A stretch of DNA of 64,000 bases from an uncultured Anaerolineales bacterium. GTDB taxonomy: Bacteria > Chloroflexota > Anaerolineae > B4-G1 > SLSP01. A program made the translations under genes and the position numbers. The stretch is from NCBI GenBank assembly GCA_964504195.1, contig CAZDDI010000004.1, positions 23,328 through 87,327 of the forward strand. Reading direction: 5' to 3'. A model generated the notes under the pieces. It saw nothing but the letters and a program-made list of their open reading frames with translations, searched no databases and had not been told where the DNA came from. Shown here piece by piece: positions 1 through 55,785 of the stretch; positions within the stretch are counted from its first letter, which is position 1, and each line of letters opens with the position of its first letter.

Positions 1-2534
1 ATCGTGTAAACCACCGGCCCGCCCGCGTAAGTGGTAGCCGACCCGCCCATACGCAGATGTAGCGCAGAGACATCAATATGGGTGGGTTTAGCCACACTGA
101 AAGGCTCGCTTTGAGCGCTATCCCATATCATGGTATTGGTCAAGACATAGCGGCCCTCAATCACGGAATCTACACGCATGGTCAGAACGATCTGCGCTGC
201 GCCCCCCACAGGTAAAGTCCCGAGCGCCCAGCTCAGTTCCCGCGCACCGGCATCATGGGACGTTGGCGCAGGCGAGGCGGACACAAACGAGAGGAACTCA
301 TCATAATGATCCAAGACCACCACATCATTATAAGCCGTCGTGGCGCGCGTATCCGTCAAGCGAAGCGTATAGGTAAGCAGTTCACCCGGCGCTACATTTG
401 TGACCCAAGGTTGCTTGTCCCCGGCCAGGCCTAAGACTGTAATGCACTGTGCGCCACAGTTGACCGGGGTGGGAATAGGATTATCAGTAAAAATCCGATC
501 ATGGTAATTACGCTCGCCTTCAACAACACCCGCCTTGCTGCTGAATTCCTCGATGGAGACGCGATTGGTGTACATCCCCGGCACAGCGGTCGGCAAAACG
601 CTGATTTGGTACTTTATCTCGTGATATTGCCCTGTGTTTGCCGAACGGGGCAAGCCGTCCAAAGTCCAGCAGATTGTACCGGTGCTTCCTGCAACCGGTG
701 ACGTATAAGCAGGGCAAGGCGCAACCCCACCAACAGCCTCACAGCTGAAAGTAGTTTCGTAAGCAAAGCCGTCAGGAATAGTATCACAAACCCGCAGTCC
801 GTGCGCTGATACGCCAGGAGTAGCACCGCTATTGCGCAGCCGGATCGTCAACAACACCACATCACCAACATTCACCGGCGCCGAGCCGGTGCGAATAGCG
901 GCAAACTGATCATTAACCAAGCGCGGCTGAATGACATTCACCGCGGTTGAGTTCGCCTTGAGTCCTAGATCTGTGTAACTCCCCCCAAGATTTGTGTAAG
1001 TAGAACCCACTGGGGGCGTCCAATGGAGCATCGCACCAGTGAGGCGATTAGTAACAGAACCAGCTTCAATGGTATTTCTAGCCGCGGCCATATCCGCCAA
1101 CGTATCCCAGGTCGGCGTTCCATTGAAGTCTAACCCTGTGTTCAAGGCTACATACTGCACCGTAACTTGACGTAACATCGTTGTTACTGGTAACGTAGCC
1201 ATGTTCACACGTAAGTTTTCCAGATACCGTGCGGCAACGCCAGTCCCAGCAAGTGGCCCTTCCTCAAGCGCGTGCCCTAACAAGGTCGCCCCTTCCACGC
1301 TCAAGGTACCAGAAACGTAATGGAAACCGCGTGACAGCGAGTCCACATACGTGGGTAATTGTAACTCTGTGTTAGGCGCCTGTCGGAAAGTAAGCGTATA
1401 GGTAATGCGGTCGCCCATGGTGACAGCACCGCTCCCGGGGACAGAGGATTTAGCTGTGACAGAAACACCAGGGCGTAGCACTTCAGCTGTACCGGCTGTG
1501 ATATAGCGGCCCATGTACGGAACAACTCCGGGGAAAGTCTCGTGCTCAGCGAAGCCCTGATAGGGGAATTCCTGACCAATCGTGAAGGTGCTGGGCAACG
1601 TCGCTGTCACCACGGCCTGCCAGGTCTGCGGAGCAACCAGGCTCCCCGGCACATTCCAGGTGATGTAAGTCACCTCGCCCACGGTGGTCACTGTTCCCGT
1701 TCCCGCGCCGGCCCCGTTAGAGCCGACATAGGTCAGGCCCGAACCCAACGTCGCGGTGTAGACAATGTCATAAGCTGTCGGGCGGTTAGCTACGCCAGAG
1801 GCCGTGAAGGTTAGCCGCACTTGTCCCCCACCCGCGCCCAACCCGTCGGGATCGAGATAGGTTGCACCATAAGCGGTGTTGACCTGCGGCTGAATCGCGG
1901 GGACTTGCGCAACCGTAGTGTCATTAGAAATAAACGCGAGCGGGGTGCAACCCGGTTCATTGGCGCAGTAACGCAAGATCGCCTGTACTCGCAGGTTAGT
2001 GCCATGATTAATCTCAGTGGTACCAACATAGAAATGCTGGGTACGAACTGCATAAACCACCATTGTTATGATATCAGTGCCTGTGATAGTCCCTTGATCA
2101 GGAAAGATGACCAACGCGCCATCTCGGGCAACCACATTCCCCGGCCCTTCAAGGGTGCGCAGTTCATCTCTAGTACCGGTAGACATCGCGGCCCAACCTG
2201 GTGCGGAACCAATGGGCAGCAAACCGTCTGCCAGCACCACGCGAGGCGACACATCGTAAATTGTCTCTCCAATTGGAACGTTGTATACCACAGTCACAGT
2301 GACAAGCTCACCCGCTACGGCCTGGGCGATGGTATTGTTGGTATCTACAATCGAAGTAACACTGCTTTTTGTAATCGTCGGAGCCAACAACAAAGGGTCA
2401 GCCGCCTGTCCTTGCGCTGTTAAAGCCCCCCAAAAGAATCCAAACAACGCCAACGCGGCTATGACCGCGCTTCCAAAACCGAGCCAGACACGCACGCGGC
2501 GCGGGCTATGATATGTATGTACCTCACTGACCAT
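1..2534 (-). CDS. Large secreted/surface repeat protein (DUF11/Cna-B-like repeats), N-terminal part; gene runs off the left edge (3' end missing)
   Basis: The frame is continuously open on the minus strand from ATG (complement of 2532-2534) to position 1 and is absent from the ORF track only because it is edge-truncated. RBS GGAGG lies 6 nt upstream. N-terminus MVSEVHTYHSPRRVRVWLGFGSAVIAALALFG is signal/TM-like, followed by Thr/Val/Gly-rich beta-repeat sequence. Confidence 0.6.
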   Translation of the reverse strand, partial: MVSEVHTYHSPRRVRVWLGFGSAVIAALALFGFFWGALTAQGQAADPLLLAPTITKSSVTSIVDTNNTIAQAVAGELVTVTVVYNVPIGETIYDVSPRVVLADGLLPIGSAPGWAAMSTGTRDELRTLEGPGNVVARDGALVIFPDQGTITGTDIITMVVYAVRTQHFYVGTTEINHGTNLRVQAILRYCANEPGCTPLAFISNDTTVAQVPAIQPQVNTAYGATYLDPDGLGAGGGQVRLTFTASGVANRPTAYDIVYTATLGSGLTYVGSNGAGAGTGTVTTVGEVTYITWNVPGSLVAPQTWQAVVTATLPSTFTIGQEFPYQGFAEHETFPGVVPYMGRYITAGTAEVLRPGVSVTAKSSVPGSGAVTMGDRITYTLTFRQAPNTELQLPTYVDSLSRGFHYVSGTLSVEGATLLGHALEEGPLAGTGVAARYLENLRVNMATLPVTTMLRQVTVQYVALNTGLDFNGTPTWDTLADMAAARNTIEAGSVTNRLTGAMLHWTPPVGSTYTNLGGSYTDLGLKANSTAVNVIQPRLVNDQFAAIRTGSAPVNVGDVVLLTIRLRNSGATPGVSAHGLRVCDTIPDGFAYETTFSCEAVGGVAPCPAYTSPVAGSTGTICWTLDGLPRSANTGQYHEIKYQISVLPTAVPGMYTNRVSIEEFSSKAGVVEGERNYHDRIFTDNPIPTPVNCGAQCITVLGLAGDKQPWVTNVAPGELLTYTLRLTDTRATTAYNDVVVLDHYDEFLSFVSASPAPTSHDAGARELSWALGTLPVGGAAQIVLTMRVDSVIEGRYVLTNTMIWDSAQSEPFSVAKPTHIDVSALHLRMGGSATTYAGGPVVYT

Positions 2535-2827
2535 TACAACCTCCTTGTGGATTAAAAATTTGTAATCTAAAAGCCGAATGAATATAGAGTGTACGACTAT
2601 CAATTAAGTATAGTTGAAAAATTCTAACTGCCAAGTGCTCTTTTACCGCTAGAGATGCTTATACCTGGCGGGATCAATACAGGCTTTCGCGCGCACATTG
2701 ACTCCCACCTGCACACCGGCTTCCCGCTTGGCCTTTTAAGACCTTTTAGGTATAATACAGCAGTTACGCGGTTGCTGTTTGTGCCACCGGCTCCAAGTGA
2801 ATTTGGCGGCTAAAGCCGCTAAAAAAG

Positions 2828-2872
2828 GAGTGTTTTTCGTGGGCGGGCTATGCCCGCCCACGAAAAACACTC
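2828..2872. other. Perfect 21-bp inverted repeat (hairpin) flanked by A6 runs in a divergent intergenic region
   Basis: gagtgtttttcgtgggcgggc-tat-gcccgcccacgaaaaacactc, flanked by aaaaaag / ttaaaaaa. Confidence 0.6.
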
Positions 2873-3067
2873 TTAAAAAATCACTTTTTGAGCTTACAGA
2901 TCGTTCGATAGAACAAACCGCGTAACTACTGTATAATAGACCTGACGGCATAAAAAGTAACGAGGAAATCCCGATACGCCACACCATGGCTCATGGATAC
3001 CCTCCGCCGTCGACACAAGATAACCCACGTTTTCCGCACAACCATATTCGACCCAGAGGAGTCACGC

Positions 3068-3727
3068 ATGGAAATAACCTGGTATGGTCTGAATTGCTTC
3101 CGCCTTAGCGAGCGGAGCTATCCGACCGTCGTCACCGATCCTTTCGACGAAGAAGAAAGCGGCCTCGCCCTACCCCGCACCCGCGCTGAAATTGTCACCT
3201 CCAGCAGCCTTGCTGATCCCGACCAAACACGCTGGAAGGGCTTGCGCGGCCCATACCGGGTCTTGAGCACCCCTGGCGAATATGAAATCGGCGGGGTCTT
3301 CGTCACCAGCATCGCCACCTTCCGCGACCGCAAAAAGGGCCTCGAACGCGGGCAAAACCTCATTCACGTCATTGAATGCAAAGGCGTCACAGTCTGTCAT
3401 CTGGGCGCATTGGGCCATATTCCCTCACAGTCTCAGGTCGAAGCGATCGGCTCTGTTCACGTTTTGCTGTTGCCGGTCGGTGCGCCCGGCGGGCTAAATC
3501 CCTCGATGGCTTCAGAAATCGTAAGCATGATTGAACCTAACATAGTTGTCCCAATGGATTATCAAATCTCCGGTCTCAAGTTCGAGCGCGAAAGCGTAGA
3601 ACGGTTCCTGAAGGAAATGGGCATCACGAAGAGCGTCCAACAAGACAGCCTCAAGGTGTCTGCCAGCACCAACGCGGAAGAGACCTCAGTTGTTATTCTG
3701 GAACCACAACGCAACGGAAACGGATAA
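3068..3727 (+). CDS. MBL-fold metal-dependent hydrolase (UPF0173-like)
   Basis: MEITWYGLNCFRLSE...GHIP motifs. Internal ATG at 3068 is preceded by GAGGAG; ORF-track ORF 2993-3727. Confidence 0.75.
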   Translation: MEITWYGLNCFRLSERSYPTVVTDPFDEEESGLALPRTRAEIVTSSSLADPDQTRWKGLRGPYRVLSTPGEYEIGGVFVTSIATFRDRKKGLERGQNLIHVIECKGVTVCHLGALGHIPSQSQVEAIGSVHVLLLPVGAPGGLNPSMASEIVSMIEPNIVVPMDYQISGLKFERESVERFLKEMGITKSVQQDSLKVSASTNAEETSVVILEPQRNGNG

Positions 3728-47560: not shown

Positions 47561-48316
47561 CTATGGCGCAAGAGTATGCAACATGAGATTGGGGATGGTT
47601 ACATGTTGATCATCATCGTGAAAAGTAAAAACTGATGCGCCTGGTTGCGCCGGTGGAAAGAGAAAAGTCCCATCCATCACAGTGAACTGCCCTTGATGTG
47701 CGGAACCACCTAGTTGTGCGGCACCGCCTGTCCCAATATGATCATACCGATGCCCTAAATTATCAATCAAATACATATTTCTGTTATATGTATCTGATTT
47801 TTTCCTGGCATCAGTTCCCGACAAGAAATTGACAGACCAGGTGACAGTAAACTCCATTTCACCAGATTCCCTGAGAATCACATATACCACGCACCAATTG
47901 ATATTGGCATGTGTGTCTGGGCCACTGATTTCGTAAGTGGCGCAAGCATCCTGCTGCGGATATGTTCCTGGCACTGCGGCGGATGGAGGTACCGCTGTAG
48001 GTGTGTGTGTCGCCATAGGTGTTGCTGTCCATACAGGTGTTGGAACCGGTGTGTTGGTAGGTGTTGCCGGCGGCACAGTGTTGGTAGGCGAGGGTGCTGG
48101 AGTATGCGTTGGCGCTGGCGTTATCGTGGCTGTTGCTGTAGCTGTTGGCAGTGGAGTGGAAGTCGCCGTAACGGTTGGTTCAGCCGTCGCGGTCAGTGTC
48201 GGCTGTGGTGTGTGCGTTTCAGTTGTAAGGCCGGTTGTGTTTGGTGTAGTACATGCTGCCAATAAAAAGACAAGCAAAATCCACAATAACTTCCCAGATT
48301 TCGGTGCTGAATACAT
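47561..48316 (-). CDS. Pro/Thr-rich secreted lipoprotein, C-terminal globular domain
   Basis: Lipobox LLAAC; long PT linker. Confidence 0.6.
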
Positions 48317-48537
48317 ATTTTTAGATATCTCCTATTTCAACTTGAAGGATATAGTAACATAATCAAGATTATTGTCAAATACATTGCGACTCGGAAGTTT
48401 TTTAACAAAGTTTTACAACCTTACTCTAACCACAAAGAGCATTCTGAATAGAAGCCACCATAACTTGACTAGAAAATATACCCCCCCCCCTTTGGAAAAT
48501 TCCCAAAACTACACTATACTGCAAGTATCCCGGCGCG

Positions 48538-48569
48538 CGTGAACCTTTGCGCTTGCACGCGCATGTAAC
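48538..48569 (+). promoter_or_regulatory. ECF-type promoter motif GCGTGAAC-N16-GCATGTAACC upstream of sigma factor gene (autoregulatory)
   Basis: Identical motif/spacing at 54757-54790. Confidence 0.5.
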
Positions 48570-48590
48570 CCTATAGAAAGGTAGCCCACT

Positions 48591-49295
48591 GTGGCGGCAT
48601 CACTCGAACACGGATCGCAACCACTTCTCCAACCGCTTTTGCGGCCGCTTCTGCGACGCTGGCTGGCAGCATTGCTCACGCACTGCCTCGACCTGGCCTG
48701 TCGCCTGGCCTGCTTCGTCACCGGCGATGCTGAGGCGCACCGGCAGGGCATCCCCACCGCAGAGCTCATCCGCCGCTTCCAGCACGGGCAACCCCGCGCC
48801 TTCGAACTGCTCTACGACCGCTACAAGGACTACGTCTACCGGGTCGCTTTCTTCATCACCCGCAACGTCTGCGAGGCGGAAGACGCCGTGCAGGAGACCT
48901 TCATGGATGTACACAAGGCGTTGCCCAACTACGATGTGGCCGGCCCGGCGCGCTTCGAGACCTGGCTGTACCGGGTCGCCGTGAACCGCTGCAAGATGCG
49001 GCTGCGGCGCAAACCCGTCCCCTCGGCGGAATGGGACGAGATCGAAGAGCAGTTGGAGCGCCTCCCGCTGCCCTCGGAAGAAGAACCCGAAAGCGCCGCG
49101 CTGCGCAAGGAACGCGCCCTGGCGCTTTGGCAATCGGTAGATGCGCTGCCGCAGGAGCACCGGGATGTAATCATCCTGCGCTACCAGCAAGACCTTTCGT
49201 ATGACGAAATCGCCCAGGTATTGGGTGTTTCACTGGGAACGGTGAAATCCCGACTCTTCAACGCCCATCGCAAACTTAAAGGGGCATTAACGTAA
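48591..49295 (+). CDS. ECF (sigma-70 family, sigma-24-like) RNA polymerase sigma factor
   Basis: Region 2 (YRVAFFITRN...EDAVQETF) and region 4 (LSYDEIAQVLGVSLGTVKSRL); GTG start. Confidence 0.8.
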   Translation: MAASLEHGSQPLLQPLLRPLLRRWLAALLTHCLDLACRLACFVTGDAEAHRQGIPTAELIRRFQHGQPRAFELLYDRYKDYVYRVAFFITRNVCEAEDAVQETFMDVHKALPNYDVAGPARFETWLYRVAVNRCKMRLRRKPVPSAEWDEIEEQLERLPLPSEEEPESAALRKERALALWQSVDALPQEHRDVIILRYQQDLSYDEIAQVLGVSLGTVKSRLFNAHRKLKGALT

Positions 49296-49363: not shown

Positions 49364-52300
49364 ATGACACCAGAAACCACCCATAGCACCACTGACCTGC
49401 TCGCCTATCTCGATGGCGAATTGAGCGAGCGCGACCAGGCGCGCGTTACCGCGCACCTGGCAACGTGTGCCGCCTGCGCCGCCGAGCTGGCCCAGCTGCG
49501 CGCGCTGCGCGGCGACCTGCGCGCCACGCTCGATGTCGCGCTCGCGCCGGTGCAGCTCTCCCGCGTCGCCGATGCCCGCATCCGTGAGGCGCTGCGCCAC
49601 CGCAACGAGCGCCCCGCCTGGCTGCTCACCTTCTGGCGGCAGCGCGGCCTCACCGTGCAAGCCCTCATGGCCGTGCTGGTGTTGGCCTTCAGCCTCAACC
49701 TCTTCCCCACGCTCCAGGCCGGGCCGGCGCAGCCCAGCACTGCCACCGAAACCGTCGTCCTGAACCAGGAACGCCTGATCCCCGGCAGCGAGGCCGCCGT
49801 GCGCGTCATCGTCCGCTCCGCTGAGAACGCCCTGCCCTTGCTCGGCGCACAGATCACCGTGCTGCTCGCGCCGCGCGGCGGCGCAGCGCGCCCCGTCTAC
49901 ACCGGCGCGACCGGCGCGGGCGGCACTGCCGACATCGCCTTCACCGTCCCCGCCGACCTTACCGGCGCGGCCAACCTCATCATCGAAACGCGCACCCCGG
50001 CGGGCCAGGAGCGCATCGTGCGCCCCATCACCATCGCCCGCAGCTATCGCCTCTACCTCAGCAGCGACAAGCCCGCCTACCGCCCCGGCCAATCCCTCTA
50101 CGTCCGCGCCCTCGCGCTCGACGCGCTGGATTACCTCCCGCCCACCGGCGCGCAAGTCACGTTCACCTTGCTAGGACCAGCGCGCCAGCAGCTCTGGCAG
50201 ACCCAGGCTGCCGTGTCCGAGTTCGGCGCGGCCGATGCCGTTACCGACCTGCCCCTCACCGCGCCCACCGGGACGTACACCCTGCGCGTTACGCTCGGCG
50301 ATACCATCTCCGAGCGCACCCTCACCGTCGGCCAATATCGCCTGCCCGCCTACCAGCTCACCCTCACCCCCGACCGCGCCTTCTACCAGCCCGGCGACCG
50401 CGTGACCGGCGTACTAGAAGCGGCCTACTTCTTCGGGAAGCCGGTGGCTGCCGCGCAAGTCGTACTACACGGCGTCGCCGCCGGCAACCAGGCCCTGGAT
50501 TTGCGCGGCGTCACCGATGCGCAAGGCCGGTTCGCCTTCGCTTTCAATTTGCCCCTTACTTTTGGCGATCCGGAGCCGCGCACGCCGCAGCCCTTCACGT
50601 TGGAAGCGCGCGTCACCGATGTCGTCGGGCAGGTGGAGGGGGTGCGGCACACGCTGCCCGTCGCCGCGCAAGGCGTGCTGCTGCGCGCCCTGCCGGAGGG
50701 CGGCGTGCTCCGCCCCGGCGTCGAGAACACACTCTTCATCCTCGCCGCGCATCCCGACGGCAGCCCCGCCCCGGCAACGCTGCTCGTGACCCTTGACCGC
50801 ACCGCGTACACTCTACGCACCGACGCCTACGGCCTCGCCATGCTGACCTTCACCCCCGCGCAGGCCACTACGCCCATCGCCATCACTGCCCAGGCTGATA
50901 GCGGCGCGACCGGCCAGACGCAGCTCACGCTCACCGGCGATACGGCCCAGCAGCAGCTCCTCCTCCGCGCCGAGCGCGCACTCTACCGCGCTGGCGAAAC
51001 CCTGCGCGTAGAGGCGCTCACCGCCGGGCTGGATGCGTTGCCCGATCCCACGCTCTACCTTGACATCGCGCGCGCCGGACAGACCGTTGCCCTGCTCTCC
51101 GCGCCGCTCCAGGGTGGGCGGGCCGTGTTCGCGCTCGATCTCGAACCGGGGTGGGTGGGTGCGCTTGAGCTGCGCGCCTACGCCCTGCTTCCCGATGGCC
51201 GCCGGGTGACAGATACCCGCCTGATCGTCGTAGACCCACCCAGCGGCGTGGATGTCGCCATCACCGCCGACGCGCCCCAGTACCGCCCCGGCGCCACCGC
51301 CGCCCTCACCGTGCAAACCACGCTCGCCGCCACCGGCGTCCCCGTGCAGGCCGCGCTGGGGCTGGTCGCCGTGGATGAATCTGTCTACGCCCTGGATACC
51401 CTGCCGCCGGGCTTCGCGCGCGCGTACCTGCTGCTGGAAAAAGACCTGTTCACCCGCGCCGGTAGCGTTCCCGGCTTCGATGCCGCCGCGCTCCGCGCCA
51501 GCGAAGACCTCGCTGCGCGCGCGGCATGGGCCGAGCTGCCCGGCGCAGCAGTGCTGACCACGTCACGGATTACCTCGCCCGCGCCCCCTGCACCGCCGCT
51601 CTCCCCCGCGCAAGTGCTGGCGCTTACCCTCACGCTCGCGCTACTGGCGATGCTGCTTACCATTGGCATAATCCGGGGATTGCAACCGGCAGGTGTGTTG
51701 CCCCACGCACTGCGCCGCGTCAGCGTGGGCTTTGTGATACTCACTCTGGCCGGATGGCTGGTGTTTGGCCTGCTCGCCGGGGTGCTCTGGCTGTTGCAAG
51801 CCTGGCTGGGGGGGCTAACGCTCCTGAGCCTGCTGGGGACGCTGCTCGCGCTTCCCTGGCTGTGGCTCGTTATCGCAGGCTGGCGGCGCGGGGATGCACG
51901 CTTGCAAATCACTACCGGCCTCCTGGCGGCTTATCTGGTGTTGCTGATAGGGCTGGTGTGGGCGACGGGGCAAAACGTCCCCATCAGCGCACTGCTCATC
52001 GCGCTGGTCACGCTCAGCTATCTGGCAATCATTGCGACAGTGGCGCTGCTGGGCCAGGGCCTCATCCTCGAAGGTCAACGCGGGCTGGGCTGGCTCACCA
52101 CCGCCTTCGCGCTGCTACTCATCGTGGCAGCGTTGGGCTTGCCGCTGATCTCCGGCCTGGCTTCCGACCTGAGCCGCACGCTGGGACATCCCGCGCTCTA
52201 CGCCGGGCCGGTGGGATGGATTACTGGCTGTGGCGCACCGGCCACCTACGCGCCAGTAGCGACGGAAGCCCCAGCCACCCAAACCCCGCAAGCGACCACA

Positions 52301-52867
52301 GAAGCGCCTGTGATTGTGCCTACGACAGAGGCCACCCCACCGCCGGCCCCTACCGCTACACCGCTCGCGCCGCCCGCCGAACCCTGGCCGCTGCGGCAGC
52401 TCTTCCCGGAAACGCTCTACTGGCAGCCGCAGGCGCTCACGGATGAGCATGGGCAGCTTGCGTTGACCCTGCCGCTGGCGGATAACATCACCACCTGGCG
52501 CTTCACCGCGCTGGCCTCCACCCGCTCCGGCGACCTGGGCGCAGCGACCTACGATATCGTTGTCTTCCAGGATTTCTTCATCGAACTAGCCCTGCCGGAC
52601 GTTATCCGCGCAGGCGCACCACTCACTGTGACGGCCACGCTCTACAACTTCCTACCGGAAGCGCAGAACGTGCAGCTGACCCCCACCCCCGCCGATTGGT
52701 ACACCTTGCTCGCTGCGCCGGAAGCGTTGCGCATTGAAGCGCAAGGCGTGACCACCGCCACACTGCGCATCCGCCCAGAGCAGGGCGGCACATACACATT
52801 GCAAATACACGCCGCTGGCGCACGCATGTCCGATGGTATCGCCGTTCCGGTCACAGTGGAACCCTGA
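49364..52867 (+). CDS. Anti-sigma factor (zf-HC2, TM) fused to alpha-2-macroglobulin-like MG domains, with an internal polytopic TM block
   Basis: HLATCAACAAEL; MG2-like DKPAYRPGQSLYVRA, DRAFYQPGDRVTG; 5-7 TM helices at aa ~740-1010; C-terminal A2M motif LFPETLYWQP. Confidence 0.65.
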   Translation: MTPETTHSTTDLLAYLDGELSERDQARVTAHLATCAACAAELAQLRALRGDLRATLDVALAPVQLSRVADARIREALRHRNERPAWLLTFWRQRGLTVQALMAVLVLAFSLNLFPTLQAGPAQPSTATETVVLNQERLIPGSEAAVRVIVRSAENALPLLGAQITVLLAPRGGAARPVYTGATGAGGTADIAFTVPADLTGAANLIIETRTPAGQERIVRPITIARSYRLYLSSDKPAYRPGQSLYVRALALDALDYLPPTGAQVTFTLLGPARQQLWQTQAAVSEFGAADAVTDLPLTAPTGTYTLRVTLGDTISERTLTVGQYRLPAYQLTLTPDRAFYQPGDRVTGVLEAAYFFGKPVAAAQVVLHGVAAGNQALDLRGVTDAQGRFAFAFNLPLTFGDPEPRTPQPFTLEARVTDVVGQVEGVRHTLPVAAQGVLLRALPEGGVLRPGVENTLFILAAHPDGSPAPATLLVTLDRTAYTLRTDAYGLAMLTFTPAQATTPIAITAQADSGATGQTQLTLTGDTAQQQLLLRAERALYRAGETLRVEALTAGLDALPDPTLYLDIARAGQTVALLSAPLQGGRAVFALDLEPGWVGALELRAYALLPDGRRVTDTRLIVVDPPSGVDVAITADAPQYRPGATAALTVQTTLAATGVPVQAALGLVAVDESVYALDTLPPGFARAYLLLEKDLFTRAGSVPGFDAAALRASEDLAARAAWAELPGAAVLTTSRITSPAPPAPPLSPAQVLALTLTLALLAMLLTIGIIRGLQPAGVLPHALRRVSVGFVILTLAGWLVFGLLAGVLWLLQAWLGGLTLLSLLGTLLALPWLWLVIAGWRRGDARLQITTGLLAAYLVLLIGLVWATGQNVPISALLIALVTLSYLAIIATVALLGQGLILEGQRGLGWLTTAFALLLIVAALGLPLISGLASDLSRTLGHPALYAGPVGWITGCGAPATYAPVATEAPATQTPQATTEAPVIVPTTEATPPPAPTATPLAPPAEPWPLRQLFPETLYWQPQALTDEHGQLALTLPLADNITTWRFTALASTRSGDLGAATYDIVVFQDFFIELALPDVIRAGAPLTVTATLYNFLPEAQNVQLTPTPADWYTLLAAPEALRIEAQGVTTATLRIRPEQGGTYTLQIHAAGARMSDGIAVPVTVEP

Positions 52868-52892
52868 TACGCTGCAAAACGTCTATTCTAAG

Positions 52893-53042
52893 CAGATCAC
52901 AAATCTGTACTGTGGGCCGTCCGCGAATAGGGCCACAAATACACGAATGAATCTGAAACGGAGTAAATTCGTGTATTCGTGAACAAATTCGTGGACGGCA
53001 GACAAGCCCGTTACCCCAATTCATTAAACCTGTGATCTACTG
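52893..53042. mobile_element. MITE-like repeat copy B with terminal inverted repeats (cAGATCACAaa ... cctgTGATCTactg)
   Basis: Internal ACACGAAT/ATTCGTGT hairpin + ATTCGTGGACGGCAGACAAGCCCG, matching copy A. Confidence 0.55.
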
Positions 53043-53103
53043 ATTCTGTATTCCGTAGTGCGTATACGTCCAGAAAATTCGCTGACTCGCAGAGGAGATT
53101 ATC

Positions 53104-53484
53104 ATGCCCGCTCATACGCCCGTCCCATTGCAAACACGGCTAAAACGCTGGTTGATTTCGGGGTTGGCCTTCATCACCAGCGTAGCCTGCACCGTGCTGG
53201 GCATTGATCTTGGTCCGCCCACGCCGATGTGCTACGAGGCGCCGGCCTACACCCCCACGCCACAAATCCTATGTTATGAGCCGACCATACCCCCACCCAC
53301 ACCGGTCAGAGCTACTCACAAGACCGCGCTTCCCAATTTGCCTAAAGCGACCCAAATCGAATGCTACATCATCTCACCCGAAATTTTGCTCACGCCCACG
53401 CCTGAACCGGAGAGCCGCGACGCGCTGCGCGAGCGGCTGCTGGCGGAAGGCCGCTTCCCGGCGGATGTGGCGCGGGAGTTGTGA
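53104..53484 (+). CDS. Membrane-anchored Pro/Thr-rich protein with three Cys-Tyr motifs (CYE, CYE, CYI); putative substrate of the downstream rSAM enzyme
   Basis: RBS GAGGAG; TM helix WLISGLAFITSVACTVLGI; repeats MCYEAPAYTPTP / LCYEPTIPPPTP / ECYIISPE. Confidence 0.55.
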   Translation: MPAHTPVPLQTRLKRWLISGLAFITSVACTVLGIDLGPPTPMCYEAPAYTPTPQILCYEPTIPPPTPVRATHKTALPNLPKATQIECYIISPEILLTPTPEPESRDALRERLLAEGRFPADVAREL

Positions 53485-53486
53485 GG

Positions 53487-54602
53487 ATGGCGTTCAAACG
53501 CACCCTGGCTAATTGGAAGCGCCGCCTGGATGCGGAACAGGCGCGACTTACCGGGCGCTGGTCGGCGGAGCTCGGCCCGCACTTCATCCTGGAACTCACG
53601 CCGCGCTGCAATCAGGACTGCCGCTATTGCTACAATGTGTGGAAGCTGCGCCCGGAGCTCGCCGCAGCCCCGCTCGATGCCGCTGGCTGGTGTGCGCTCA
53701 TCGCCAAATTGCAGGCCGAGACCGGTTGCACCCGCGTCACATTCTCCGGCGGGGAGCCGCTGCTGCATCCCGGTTTCCGTGAGATTCTGGCCTTTTGCGC
53801 CCAACGTGGCCTGGAAAGCACCCTCATCTCCAACGGCGGGCTGCTGGATGACGCCATGTTGGCTTTGTGCATGGCGCAGGGCGTGCGGATGTTCGAACTG
53901 ACGCTGCTGGGGCGGGATGCCGCCACGCATGACGCGCTCACGCGGACGCCGGGTAGCTGGGAGCGCGCGCTGCAAGCCATGACGCGCCTCTACAAAACCG
54001 GGGCGACCTGGTGTGGGGTCTTTGTCGCCACGCGGGACAACATCCACCAAACCCGTGAGACGCTGGAAATGATGATCGCGCTGGGCGCCAGCGCACTCAT
54101 GTTCAACCGGTTCAATCCCGGCGGCGAAGGCTCACGGCATCTGGACTTGATGCCTACGGGGGCGCAGGTGCAGACGGCGCTGGGCGTGGTGGACGAACTC
54201 GCGGCAACCTACGGGCTGCTGGCTTCGGCCTCGATTCCCATCATGCCATGTCTCATCAACACTACGCCCTATACGCACGTTTACTTTGGGTTTTGCGCGG
54301 CGGGACGCGAGAACGCCTATCCCACGCTCGGCCCGGATGGGCGCGTGCGTCCGTGCAATCACAGCGCCACGGTGCTGGGCGATTTTCGCGCACAACCGAT
54401 GGCAAAAATTCTGGCCTCACCCGCGCTCAAAGCGTTTACCGCAGCCGCGCCGGACATCTGCAAGCCCTGCCCCGGCCTGGAAACGTGCCGCGCCGGATGT
54501 CGCGCCGCAGCGGAAGTCTGTTTCGGCTCAGTGGCACAGCCAGAACCCTGGCTGCGGGAGAACTTCGATCCCGGCAGGCTTTACAGCGCGGGGAACCGCT
54601 GA
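53487..54602 (+). CDS. Radical SAM / SPASM-domain peptide-modifying enzyme
   Basis: CNQDCRYC (Cx3Cx2C); C-terminal CKPCPGLETCRAGC (Cx2Cx5Cx3C) plus upstream Cys; overlaps upstream ORF (alternative GTG at 53481). Confidence 0.8.
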   Translation: MAFKRTLANWKRRLDAEQARLTGRWSAELGPHFILELTPRCNQDCRYCYNVWKLRPELAAAPLDAAGWCALIAKLQAETGCTRVTFSGGEPLLHPGFREILAFCAQRGLESTLISNGGLLDDAMLALCMAQGVRMFELTLLGRDAATHDALTRTPGSWERALQAMTRLYKTGATWCGVFVATRDNIHQTRETLEMMIALGASALMFNRFNPGGEGSRHLDLMPTGAQVQTALGVVDELAATYGLLASASIPIMPCLINTTPYTHVYFGFCAAGRENAYPTLGPDGRVRPCNHSATVLGDFRAQPMAKILASPALKAFTAAAPDICKPCPGLETCRAGCRAAAEVCFGSVAQPEPWLRENFDPGRLYSAGNR

Positions 54603-54819: not shown

Positions 54820-55785
54820 ATGCATCGTATATGGCTACTCAGTATATTGGCTTTGGTGATCTTGCTATCCGCTTGCGGGCAAGCCACACCCCCACCCGTC
54901 CGCGCAACGATAGCACCGGCAACGCAAGAGCCTTATGTTGCTGCGACAATGGAAGCACCCCCAGAGATACCGGCTACTCCCATGCCGACGCCCGTTGGTG
55001 ATCCGGCGCTCCAACAGGCTCGCAACGCCGGAAGCACCCTGCCAGATACCGACTACCGCGCCAACCGGCTCATCATCAAGAACGCCGAAATGATACTGCT
55101 GGTGGAAGATACCGATAATGCCATTGACCGGTTGACCCAGATTGCAGGCGATACGGGTGGCTACATTCTCAGCTCACGGGTCTGGTATCGGGAGTGGCTC
55201 GGCACAAACTACAAGTACGCCACGGTTACGCTCAGCGTTCCATCGGGACAGTTCGAGGTAGCGATGCGCCGGTTGCGCGTCCTAGCACTCCGCGTGCTCG
55301 ACGAAAACGCCTCCGGGCAGGATGTTACGGATGAGTATGTAGACCTGGAATCGCGCCTGCGCAACCTCCAGGCTACCCGTGATCGCATCCGCAGCTTCCT
55401 GGAACAAGCCGAAAATGTAGAAGAAGCGCTGGAGGTCAACCGGCAACTGGGGGCAGTGGAGGCCGACATCGAGCAAGTGCAGGGGCGGATGAACTATCTC
55501 TTCGACCGGGCGGCCTACTCCACCATCACCGTCTCGCTGGAACCGGATTTACCAGAACCGCCGCCCACACCGACGCCGACGCCCACCCCTACACCAACGC
55601 CTATACCACCCTGGTCGCCCGCACCCACAGCGGAAGCAGCCGGGAAGACGCTAACCCTGATCTTGCAAGTATTGGTCGAAATCGGTATCTGGCTCGGTAT
55701 CGTGATGTTGCCGCTGGTCGGGCCGCCGCTGCTCATCATCTGGGGCATCTGGCGCATCTATCAGCGCAAGTCGCGCCGCGCGTAA
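54820..55785 (+). CDS. DUF4349-domain lipoprotein with (PT)n linker and C-terminal TM anchor
   Basis: Lipobox LLSAC; PTPTPTPTPTPTPIP; DUF4349 is often found with anti-sigma factors. Confidence 0.6.
   Translation: MHRIWLLSILALVILLSACGQATPPPVRATIAPATQEPYVAATMEAPPEIPATPMPTPVGDPALQQARNAGSTLPDTDYRANRLIIKNAEMILLVEDTDNAIDRLTQIAGDTGGYILSSRVWYREWLGTNYKYATVTLSVPSGQFEVAMRRLRVLALRVLDENASGQDVTDEYVDLESRLRNLQATRDRIRSFLEQAENVEEALEVNRQLGAVEADIEQVQGRMNYLFDRAAYSTITVSLEPDLPEPPPTPTPTPTPTPTPIPPWSPAPTAEAAGKTLTLILQVLVEIGIWLGIVMLPLVGPPLLIIWGIWRIYQRKSRRA

Follow-up and report, generated by a model that had tools for sequence, protein, structure and literature searches.

The 64,000-nucleotide (nt) stretch analyzed here, called the window below, comes from an uncultured Anaerolineales bacterium (contig CAZDDI010000004.1), and at positions 53104–54602 it carries two adjoining genes: one for a small protein with three Cys-Tyr (CY) dyads and one for a radical S-adenosylmethionine (SAM) enzyme of the SPASM type. 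Judged from gene order and conservation, the gene pair is very probably an undescribed protein-modification system. An earlier inspection of the letters (the original prediction) had listed a ribosome-binding site, a 126-residue open reading frame (ORF), three CY motifs, a stop/start overlap, a CNQDCRYC cluster motif and a SPASM motif, and all of them proved to lie where it had placed them. The features of the pair are as follows.

53092–53097, forward strand: GAGGAG, a Shine-Dalgarno-like sequence, with a 6-nt spacer to the ATG of the small ORF (read from the sequence).
53104–53484, forward strand: small CY protein, the presumed substrate, 126 amino acids (aa), from ATG 53104 to stop TGA 53482–53484 (ORF and translation).
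53149–53205, forward strand: hydrophobic signal or anchor segment, residues 16–34, with RLKR before it and a lipobox-like V-A-C29 within it.
53230–53235, forward strand: dyad 1, C43-Y44, MCYEAPAY (PMCYEAP), candidate modification site; C43 and Y44 are invariant in alignment A1.
53272–53277, forward strand: dyad 2, C57-Y58, LCYEPTIPPPTP (ILCYEPT), candidate modification site.
53362–53367, forward strand: dyad 3, C87-Y88, ECYIISPE (IECYIIS), candidate modification site.
53407–53481, forward strand: C-terminal motif PESRDALRERLLAEGRFPADVAREL, predicted to form a helix on which the enzyme may dock; top-conserved block of alignment A3.
53481–54602, forward strand: radical-SAM/SPASM enzyme, the presumed maturase, with 373 aa if it starts at GTG 53481 and 371 aa if it starts at ATG 53487.
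53490–53552, forward strand: N-terminal amphipathic helix of the enzyme, residues 2–22 (H2–22 of the AlphaFold2 model), specific to the Anaerolineae clade that pairs with small CY proteins.
53607–53630, forward strand: CX3CX2C motif CNQDCRYC (C41, C45 and C48), ligands of the SAM-binding [4Fe-4S] cluster, inside the family signature C..CYN.W.
54249–54521, forward strand: SPASM auxiliary-cluster region with eight conserved Cys (Pfam SPASM and family conservation).

The small protein begins with the basic RLKR stretch and the hydrophobic segment, continues as a Pro/Thr-rich tether that contains the three dyads, and ends in the C-terminal block. Three of its four Cys directly precede a Tyr, and with Tyr at approximately 3% of the residues our own arithmetic gives a chance expectation of approximately 1e-4 for this arrangement. 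No Pfam or NCBIfam model matched the protein. The ORF is called as a gene in JGI and Logan records, and its exact protein sequence is present in NCBI, JGI, Logan and ENA sources. Eight homologues were found in the protein collection, two of them on contigs shared with enzyme homologues.

We compared these proteins in three alignments, A1 (the window protein with its eight homologues), A3 (16 members) and A4 (a further alignment, used for the metagenome scan described below). The conserved elements were a signal segment ending in A-C, two to five CY dyads within divergent Pro/Thr linkers, and the C-terminal block. The best-conserved part of the protein is the C-terminal helix with the consensus LRERLLAEGRFPxDVAREL, which the original prediction did not include and in which L108, L112, F118, P119 and V122 are invariant in A3. 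As to the dyads, C57 and Y58 of dyad 2 are invariant in A4 and kept in A3 except in two paralogues of the loci L004/L013, and dyad 3 is kept in most homologues even though the linker around it diverges (A1 and A3). Dyad 1 fits the site logo of the family loosely, as it is devoid of Thr at position −1 and has Pro at +4 instead of +3.

The N-terminal segment had been described as a transmembrane (TM) helix. The hydrophobic stretch at residues 16–34 is there, but it looks like an export signal or a lipoprotein-type anchor and not like a permanent TM helix, in view of the conserved Cys at its end and the homologues with Arg pairs resembling those of twin-arginine translocation (Tat) signals. The hydrophobic region ends in [ST][AV]AC in most homologues (A3), and A28 and C29 are invariant in A1; the Cys is missing in three L004/L013 paralogues of A3. 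The signals of the homologues vary: L008 has SRRLKV, L094/L095 have GRRQLLK, and the Cys is missing from some L004 paralogues. The window protein itself has T-S-V-A-C29, which by eye fits a relaxed Gram-positive-type lipobox only, and it has RLKR, not RR. Two other Pro/Thr-rich lipoprotein-like proteins of the window carry L-A-A-C and L-S-A-C at the equivalent position, and this recurrence of a lipobox followed by a Pro/Thr tether supports the lipoprotein-signal reading of the small protein N-terminus. One of the two (47561–48316, reverse strand) is a 251-aa protein with the L-A-A-C lipobox and a long Pro/Thr/Ala-rich linker. The small protein may be lipidated at C29, and the bulk of it is predicted to lie outside the cell.

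The enzyme gene follows the small ORF directly. A start at GTG 53481 overlaps the small ORF by 4 nt, and a start at ATG 53487 leaves a gap of 2 nt; public gene calls choose the latter, giving a 371-aa protein that is 100% identical to P0009. The enzyme falls into the SPASM subgroup of the radical SAM superfamily, since it contains both the CX3CX2C motif within Pfam Radical_SAM (PF04055; E 1.6e-18, 67.9 bits against a cut-off of 29.5) and the 7-Cys motif CX9-15GX4C...CX2CX5CX3C...C within Pfam SPASM (PF13186; E 3e-7, 31.1 bits against a cut-off of 21.5). The auxiliary Cys are arranged as an extra upstream C255, followed by C270-x14-G-x4-C290, C325-x2-C328-x5-C334-x3-C338 and C345, and each of the eight is kept in 87–100% of 77 family members. 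CX3CX2C is invariant in 77/77, and the signatures C..CYN[VA]W and MFNRFNPGG are, like the eight C-terminal Cys, invariant or nearly so in the 77 sequences, the window enzyme included.

To which family does the enzyme belong? The original prediction had left room for a housekeeping assignment, and the search placed the enzyme outside the curated NCBIfam families: all 62 NCBIfam matches scored far below their curated cut-offs, with no clustering among housekeeping enzymes. The scores were:

PqqE (TIGR02109), the best NCBIfam match: 105.5 bits, cut-off 381.
AhbD: 78 bits, cut-off 500.
GeoRSP: 77 bits, cut-off 400.
StsB: 64 bits, cut-off 625.
MftC (TIGR03962): 60.1 bits, cut-off 265.
TIGR04133: 58 bits, cut-off 425.
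SkfB: 46.6 bits, cut-off 300.

No model for the anaerobic sulfatase-maturating enzyme (anSME) or for QhpD was among the best 25 of the 62 matches, and QhpD was not examined separately. The closest solved sequence was PqqE (PDB 6c8v, 82 bits). In a fold search with the AlphaFold2 model of the enzyme (pLDDT 82.6), the nearest solved folds were SkfB, SuiB, PqqE and anSME; as modelled, the fold belongs to the generic neighbourhood of peptide- and protein-modifying SPASM/twitch enzymes and does not discriminate between chemistries. Pfam found no PqqD-type recognition element for peptides that ribosomes make and that are then post-translationally modified (RiPPs), i.e. no PqqD/RRE domain, and only approximately 35 residues, comprising the single helix 2–22, stand before the radical-SAM core, which argues against an RRE. 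Relatives at 65–76% identity align with the enzyme from residues 1–6, and most of those at 37–48% identity only from approximately residue 33. The sources name the relatives merely 'radical SAM protein' or, in some JGI records, loosely 'PqqE'. On the identical public contig there were no pqqA/B/C/D, ahb/nir, mft or sulfatase genes among the neighbours, and the CY protein has no C/S-x-P-x-R motif, its dyad contexts being CYEAP, CYEPT and CYIIS. By these comparisons, none of the curated housekeeping and RiPP families examined includes the enzyme.

Conservation of the small ORF was judged in close relatives with enough flanking sequence. The results showed that 20/20 close-clade Anaerolineae loci carry it, in one to six copies (32 small ORFs in all), and 74/105 Cys in these 32 ORFs are followed by Tyr, most of the others being the signal-peptide Cys. 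The number of CY dyads per protein ranges from zero, in three short or truncated ORFs, to five, with diverging linkers between them. The enzyme relatives in this set are 64–87% identical to the window enzyme and all come from Anaerolineae metagenome-assembled genomes (MAGs), where the small ORF always lies ahead of the enzyme gene. There is one copy in L006 and in L007, two each in L008, L010, L011, L012 and L014, and six in L004/L013. At L007 a gene with guanylate/adenylate-cyclase and DUF5939 domains (2287–3381) stands between small ORF and enzyme, and the tight coupling is broken.

The six tandem paralogues at L004 (3625–6004, equal to L013 5607–7986) are 89–148 aa long and precede a single enzyme gene. 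Two of them have no Cys at the signal end (MAASY) and two have A-R-C; the last, of 89 aa, is devoid of a hydrophobic segment and has a single ICYEI dyad. All six retain the C-terminal L.E.LL.EGRFP..V..EL block.

The association was also examined from the side of the small protein. A metagenome scan seeded solely by the C-terminal motif [EAD][RQT]LLAEGRF (alignment A4) gave 10 confirmed loci, and in 10/10 a same-clade enzyme was adjacent, downstream on the same strand in eight and divergent in two. The divergent genes, L094 62–913 and L095 2345–2992, unlike the usual same-strand upstream copies, encode small-family members with Tat-like signals (GRRQLLKTLITAGG; GRRQLLK) and no signal-end Cys. 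The co-occurrence of the pair and the conservation of the CY motifs, which the original prediction had proposed to look for, were both found, and on this evidence of gene order and conservation the small protein and the enzyme are a real, conserved, translationally coupled unit.

We then scanned genomes with the enzyme alignment and obtained 80 loci, all from MAGs: nine from Anaerolineae at 65–76% identity and the others at 37–48%. The latter are labelled Chloroflexota, Planctomycetota, Myxococcota, Pseudomonadota, Kiritimatiellia and Verrucomicrobiota, with one labelled Cyanobacteriota; by these MAG labels, the enzyme family extends over at least six phyla. An exhaustive profile search for the enzyme found 341 cluster representatives (50% identity) at E <= 1e-30, i.e. 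the family comprises a few hundred 50%-identity clusters. Six fusion proteins from the exhaustive hidden Markov model search (P0160, P0172, P0220, P0234, P0242 and P0245) lie at the family fringe, have no CY domain and were uninformative.

In these loci the upstream ORF, usually ending 0–140 nt before the enzyme gene, bears CY dyads. At least one dyad was present in 66/78 automatically picked upstream ORFs and in approximately 70/78 after mis-picked frames in L008, L011, L014 and L073 had been corrected by hand. In the picked ORFs, where 2.2% of the residues are Tyr, 118 of the 367 Cys have a Tyr after them. Across the wider family the sites give the logo [AVI]-T-C-Y-[EADK]-P-[MV], and the CY dyad is the sole core feature that is invariant across phyla, in carriers from 89 to approximately 840 aa. 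All-against-all clustering of the ORFs in the 80 loci showed that only the CY protein is conserved; no protease, exporter or transporter, RRE or reductase was. Recurrent extra neighbours (EamA, YgjP, kinases and ABC components) reflect lineage synteny only.

The partners in other phyla are larger, 230–840 aa with one to four CY-bearing modules, and two types can be described. The Chloroflexota type (637 clusters at 90% identity) has approximately 230 aa, two dyads and a canonical Tat signal, (S/P)RRDFMKLxGxS...L(T/A)RC; NCBI names some of these proteins 'twin-arginine translocation signal domain-containing protein'. The Planctomycetota/Myxococcota type has a two-helix membrane N-terminus and one to four repeats of a module of approximately 180 aa with one dyad each, and the module appears helical from its sequence pattern and its homology to the modelled Chloroflexota type. 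These two types align in hhalign with a probability of 98.6% (E 4e-15) and with their dyads superimposed. The small Anaerolineae family matches the N-terminal part of the Chloroflexota type with a probability of 87% (E 4e-7), and its C-terminal block is placed on the Chloroflexota helix L..LVasGe.t..VA. In the AlphaFold2 model of the 230-aa Chloroflexota type (all-helical, pLDDT 64.8), both dyads lie in low-confidence loops between helices, that is, at sites predicted to be accessible; a Foldseek search of the PDB with this model gave no match with E < 1 and no functional hint from the fold. Of the proteins in other phyla, four with CY dyads and three enzymes were scanned, and none matched a Pfam or NCBIfam family above cut-off.

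Two further observations concern this wider set. At L045 (7236–8972) the CY protein and the enzyme are in one reading frame of 578 aa, a natural fusion or an assembly indel. We suspect that the latter is likely; a genuine fusion would speak directly for a functional link between the two. At L083 (5701–7050), and also at L077, L066, L062 and L056 (37–41% identity), the upstream gene does not encode a CY protein. That of L083 encodes 449 aa with 48 Cys in C-x-G-x-C-type repeats and may represent a different substrate class of a sister subfamily.

Taken together, these data make it likely that the two genes form a maturation module in which the CY dyads of the coupled small protein are modified by the enzyme while still in the cytoplasm, ahead of export of the protein and its anchoring on the outer face of the membrane through the N-terminus (signal or lipoprotein-type anchor). 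In such a module, translational coupling, as seen in the overlapping or abutting codons, would bring enzyme and substrate together. The enzyme would then dock on the C-terminal helix of the small protein, possibly via its own clade-specific N-terminal helix. The conserved helix after the dyads is probably the docking element, and the finding that the extra N-terminal helix is present in the Anaerolineae enzymes and missing in those with large substrates hints at a helix-helix contact. Given its need for SAM and Fe-S clusters and the lack of a signal peptide, the enzyme should be cytoplasmic, and the dyads should therefore be modified ahead of Sec or Tat export. Proteins that use the Tat route fold or mature beforehand. 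The signal sequences suggest that the modified protein would leave the cytoplasm by the Sec or the Tat route.

In the catalytic step, SAM would be cleaved at the CX3CX2C cluster to yield a 5'-deoxyadenosyl radical, a hydrogen would be abstracted at or next to the dyad of each (T)CY motif, and the two SPASM auxiliary clusters would take up the electron, as in the enzymology of other SPASM enzymes (PMC10114670). Since only the Cys and the adjacent Tyr are invariant, a Cys-Tyr-centred oxidation is favoured. Tyr is also the residue on which PqqE and MftC, the closest curated relatives by sequence, act. Our preferred candidate is a thioether from the Cys sulphur to Cα or Cβ of the Tyr, which would close a six- or seven-membered ring and remove 2 Da per site. 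An anSME-type conversion of Cys to formylglycine (−18 Da) is the second candidate, followed by a C-C or S-aryl link between Cys and Tyr. Precedents exist for hydrogen abstraction at the Cys Cβ leading to formylglycine in anSME, for Cα abstraction with thioether formation in AlbA, and for Cβ or Cγ thioethers in ranthipeptides (PMC10114670).

We also consider, tentatively and as somewhat less probable than its opposite, that the modification itself is undescribed: one made from an adjacent Cys-Tyr pair on exported, membrane-tethered proteins, by a new radical-SAM maturation class with its own substrate superfamily. This could be a thioether closing a ring of six or seven members, a C-C or S-aryl link, or a redox or metal-binding group derived from Cys and Tyr, in Anaerolineae wired to an envelope-sensing operon with ECF sigma and anti-sigma-macroglobulin genes.

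Several points weigh against the module as proposed. The small protein is connected to the enzyme as its substrate by gene neighbourhood and motif conservation alone, and the enzyme is devoid of an RRE or any other recognized substrate-binding domain. The window protein has RLKR where a twin-arginine motif would be expected and fits the lipobox loosely. Support for a common origin of the small and the larger CY proteins is only moderate (the 87% comes from compositionally biased sequences, and against the Planctomycetota module the probability is 2.8%), and in approximately 7/78 loci at the far end of the family, at 37–41% identity, there is no CY protein nearby. As regards the chemistry, we know of no precedent for a crosslink between adjacent residues among sacti- and ranthipeptides. 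The eight auxiliary Cys resemble the fully ligated pattern of anSME more than that of an open-site thioether synthase; this weakens the preference for a thioether and is mildly against a CteB-like open site. The chemistry is thus unconstrained, with a thioether, a formylglycine-type oxidation and a C-C link all being candidates, and crosslinking is one among several.

Of the other explanations, the one that survives best, although we hold it to be unlikely, is that the enzyme acts like anSME and converts the Cys of the dyad to formylglycine or another carbonyl- or thioaldehyde-derived residue, giving aldehydes for, e.g. covalent attachment or catalysis. It would account for the invariant Cys and for the eighth auxiliary Cys upstream of the 7-Cys motif, an arrangement like that of fully ligated anSME; anSME is also among the nearest solved folds. 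In addition, the substrates of anSME are whole proteins still to be exported, and it modifies them without an RRE (for the chemistry, see PMC10114670). The invariant Tyr at +1, on the other hand, has no role in anSME chemistry, there is neither a C/S-x-P-x-R motif nor a sulfatase nearby, and the best 25 NCBIfam matches do not include an anSME model.

Quite unlikely, in our view, is a classical RiPP cluster, in which the 126-aa protein would be a multi-core precursor and the CY segments would be cut out as bioactive peptides or as a cofactor, like PqqA or MftA. Several paralogous precursors per enzyme (six at L004/L013, two elsewhere) are typical of RiPP loci, the short core-like motifs are repeated between variable linkers with a conserved non-core recognition element at the C-terminus, and PqqE and MftC, the nearest curated relatives, build peptide-derived cofactors from Tyr-containing peptides. 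Such a cluster should include a protease and/or an exporter, but in the 80 loci conservation extends neither to a protease or transporter nor to an RRE/PqqD or a tailoring enzyme. Moreover, the proteins bear export signals instead of leader peptides, and the homologous substrates elsewhere, of 230–840 aa with one to four CY modules, have Tat or membrane-anchor signals. On the same grounds, the system as a whole is unlike a RiPP system, as no leader protease, transporter or RRE is conserved and partners elsewhere reach 230–840 aa.

It is very unlikely that the CY protein is only a partner of the enzyme, i.e. a tether, a chaperone, or a redox or metal-binding subunit, while the enzyme acts on a lipid, a cell-wall precursor or a cofactor. 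Direct evidence of modification is lacking, the enzyme has no recognized peptide-binding domain, and some far relatives occur without a CY protein, all of which would suit a partner. Against this, the CY protein is predicted to lie mostly outside the cell, and the Fe-S/SAM enzyme is devoid of a signal peptide. Conservation does not extend to any gene related to another substrate, and a tiny invariant dyad whose copy number varies within divergent linkers is the signature of a modification site and not of a binding partner. The notion of a diverged housekeeping cofactor enzyme (PqqE, AhbD/NirJ or MftC) that happens to lie next to a Pro/Thr-rich lipoprotein gene is effectively refuted: PqqE is the best NCBIfam and PDB sequence match and some JGI records label relatives 'PqqE', but the scores are three- to six-fold under the curated cut-offs, no pqqABCD, ahb, nir or mft genes are nearby, and the adjacency is conserved across phyla and reciprocal.

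The original prediction had placed the pair directly downstream of an extracytoplasmic function (ECF) sigma/anti-sigma locus, and this location is correct; the link was found in five close-clade loci and is not universal, being absent upstream in L006, L012 and L014. The genes in the window are:

48591–49295, forward strand: ECF sigma factor (TIGR02937, 116 bits against a cut-off of 42.9).
49364–52867, forward strand: anti-sigma factor with zf-HC2 and the macroglobulin domains MG2, A2M_BRD and A2M (Pfam).

The anti-sigma protein is unusual, with 1167 aa and a multi-span hydrophobic region and a Pro/Thr linker between zf-HC2 and the macroglobulin part. Orthologues of the sigma factor occupy the same position in L010 and L013, and those of the anti-sigma-macroglobulin gene immediately precede the small CY ORFs of L010, L013/L004, L007 and L096. 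Where the spacers between anti-sigma gene and CY ORF were read (L013, L007 and L096), they were approximately 70 nt or less, suggesting that the sigma and anti-sigma genes and the module probably form one operon. The ECF sigma gene would thus probably be the first gene of a unit of sigma, anti-sigma, CY protein and radical-SAM enzyme. Since the module is often the tail of such an operon in Anaerolineae, it is probably switched on by an envelope signal.

An ECF-type promoter-like sequence, (G)TGAAC-N17-C(A/G)T, was seen by eye upstream of the sigma gene in three loci:

Window, approximately 48535–48570: ECF promoter-like motif.
L010, approximately 3015–3050: the same motif.
L013, approximately 1250–1285: the same motif.

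The spacer before the small ORF of the window (52868–53103) is 236 nt long and contains a long imperfect hairpin (52911–53004; 38-nt arms, 79% complementary), which occurs once in the window. RNA folding of 52885–53045 gave −58.7 kcal/mol (z = −6.2). The hairpin had no Rfam match, and the homologous loci, with spacers of approximately 70 nt or less, are without such an element; it may serve as an attenuator or operator, or it may be an insertion. A further GTGAAC at 52979–52984 lies inside the hairpin with no matching −10 element. An internal ECF promoter before the window small ORF was considered and rejected, as the motif GTGAAC-N17-C[AG]T is not convincingly repeated there.

Downstream of the enzyme, at 54820–55785 (forward strand), is a DUF4349 protein (E 3e-46), in which the L-S-A-C lipobox is accompanied by a Pro/Thr linker and, at the C-terminus, by a TM segment. 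An orthologue comes right after the enzyme in L007 and L009; in L012 and L014 it is no more than a few kb away. The other neighbours on the identical public contig encode a protein of unknown function, an acetyltransferase and a glycosyltransferase.

Much new peptide chemistry comes from radical-SAM/SPASM enzymes, but a substrate is known for only a small fraction of the approximately 60,000 annotated ones (PMC10114670). In the present case, a presumed substrate and a probable site, the invariant CY dyad in Tat- or Sec-exported proteins, could be pinpointed from the sequence alone. Judged from the loci compared here, the system is far wider and more like protein maturation than the original prediction could see. 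The window pair is the smallest member of the family, with a 97-residue mature substrate, three sites, a 371-aa enzyme and no accessory protein, and such a minimal pair offers a tractable entry point to the chemistry. A reaction that joins or transforms the two neighbouring residues would be new to radical-SAM chemistry, possibly giving a new protein-derived cofactor or an envelope metal site. Should the product prove to be formylglycine or a common thioether, the work would still define a substrate class that is large and new, and an annotation gap would be filled.

How does the module compare with known systems? In full-text searches of the literature we found no relevant paper on a Cys-Tyr-motif substrate of a radical-SAM enzyme, only known crosslink systems, and no curated model covers the motif, in agreement with the claim that the CY core is not a known recognition motif.

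The likeness to bufferins is functional and conceptual only. Bufferins are large, widespread ribosomal products with Sec signals, their Cys are modified in the cytoplasm before the products reach the envelope, and their regulation is of a stress type; they bind copper, the enzyme is MNIO/DUF692 and not a radical-SAM protein, and the Cys context is another one. In the arrangement of its genes the module is similar to the repeat-motif systems of Haft (ACGX TIGR04340, His-Xaa-Ser HxsB/C, and TIGR04133 'rSAM with lipoprotein'), which likewise combine an uncharacterized SPASM enzyme with a repeat-motif or lipoprotein-signal partner and are defined by gene neighbourhood alone. The window enzyme scores only 43–60 bits against their cut-offs of 268–425, however, and the CY dyad is a different motif.

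PqqE with PqqA and MftC with MftA are the closest curated sequence relatives, and both enzymes modify Tyr in a ribosomal peptide. Here, in contrast, there is no PqqD or MftB chaperone and there are no downstream pathway genes, and the motif and the substrate size are wholly different. AlbA, CteB/SCIFF, PapB and StsB share with the present enzyme that they are SPASM enzymes acting on Cys-containing ribosomal products with repeated sites and several precursor genes per enzyme. The sacti- and ranthipeptide maturases have an N-terminal RRE, short leader-core peptides and acceptor residues at least two positions away, whereas the enzyme described here has no RRE, its recognition element is C-terminal in the substrate, and its substrates range from 89 to approximately 840 aa.

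QhpD is a SPASM enzyme that installs several Cys thioethers in a small protein, QhpC, which is then exported, and this is maturation and not the making of a natural product. In QhpC the crosslinks run from Cys to Asp or Glu, and the operon contains dehydrogenase subunits and a protease; in our system there is no dehydrogenase, and the sole conserved partner residue is the adjacent Tyr. With anSME and the sulfatases, the module shares an RRE-less SPASM enzyme, a specific Cys in a short motif, a whole signal-bearing protein as substrate, modification before export, a two-component logic and a similar number of auxiliary-cluster Cys. It differs in the motif, (T)CY(E/D/K/A)P here against C/S-x-P-x-R, and in the substrates, which here are not sulfatases and have up to five sites; the invariant Tyr of the CY motif implies a recognition mode or a chemistry different from that of anSME. 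By these analogies, the best reading is that the module resembles anSME and QhpD more than a classical RiPP cluster.

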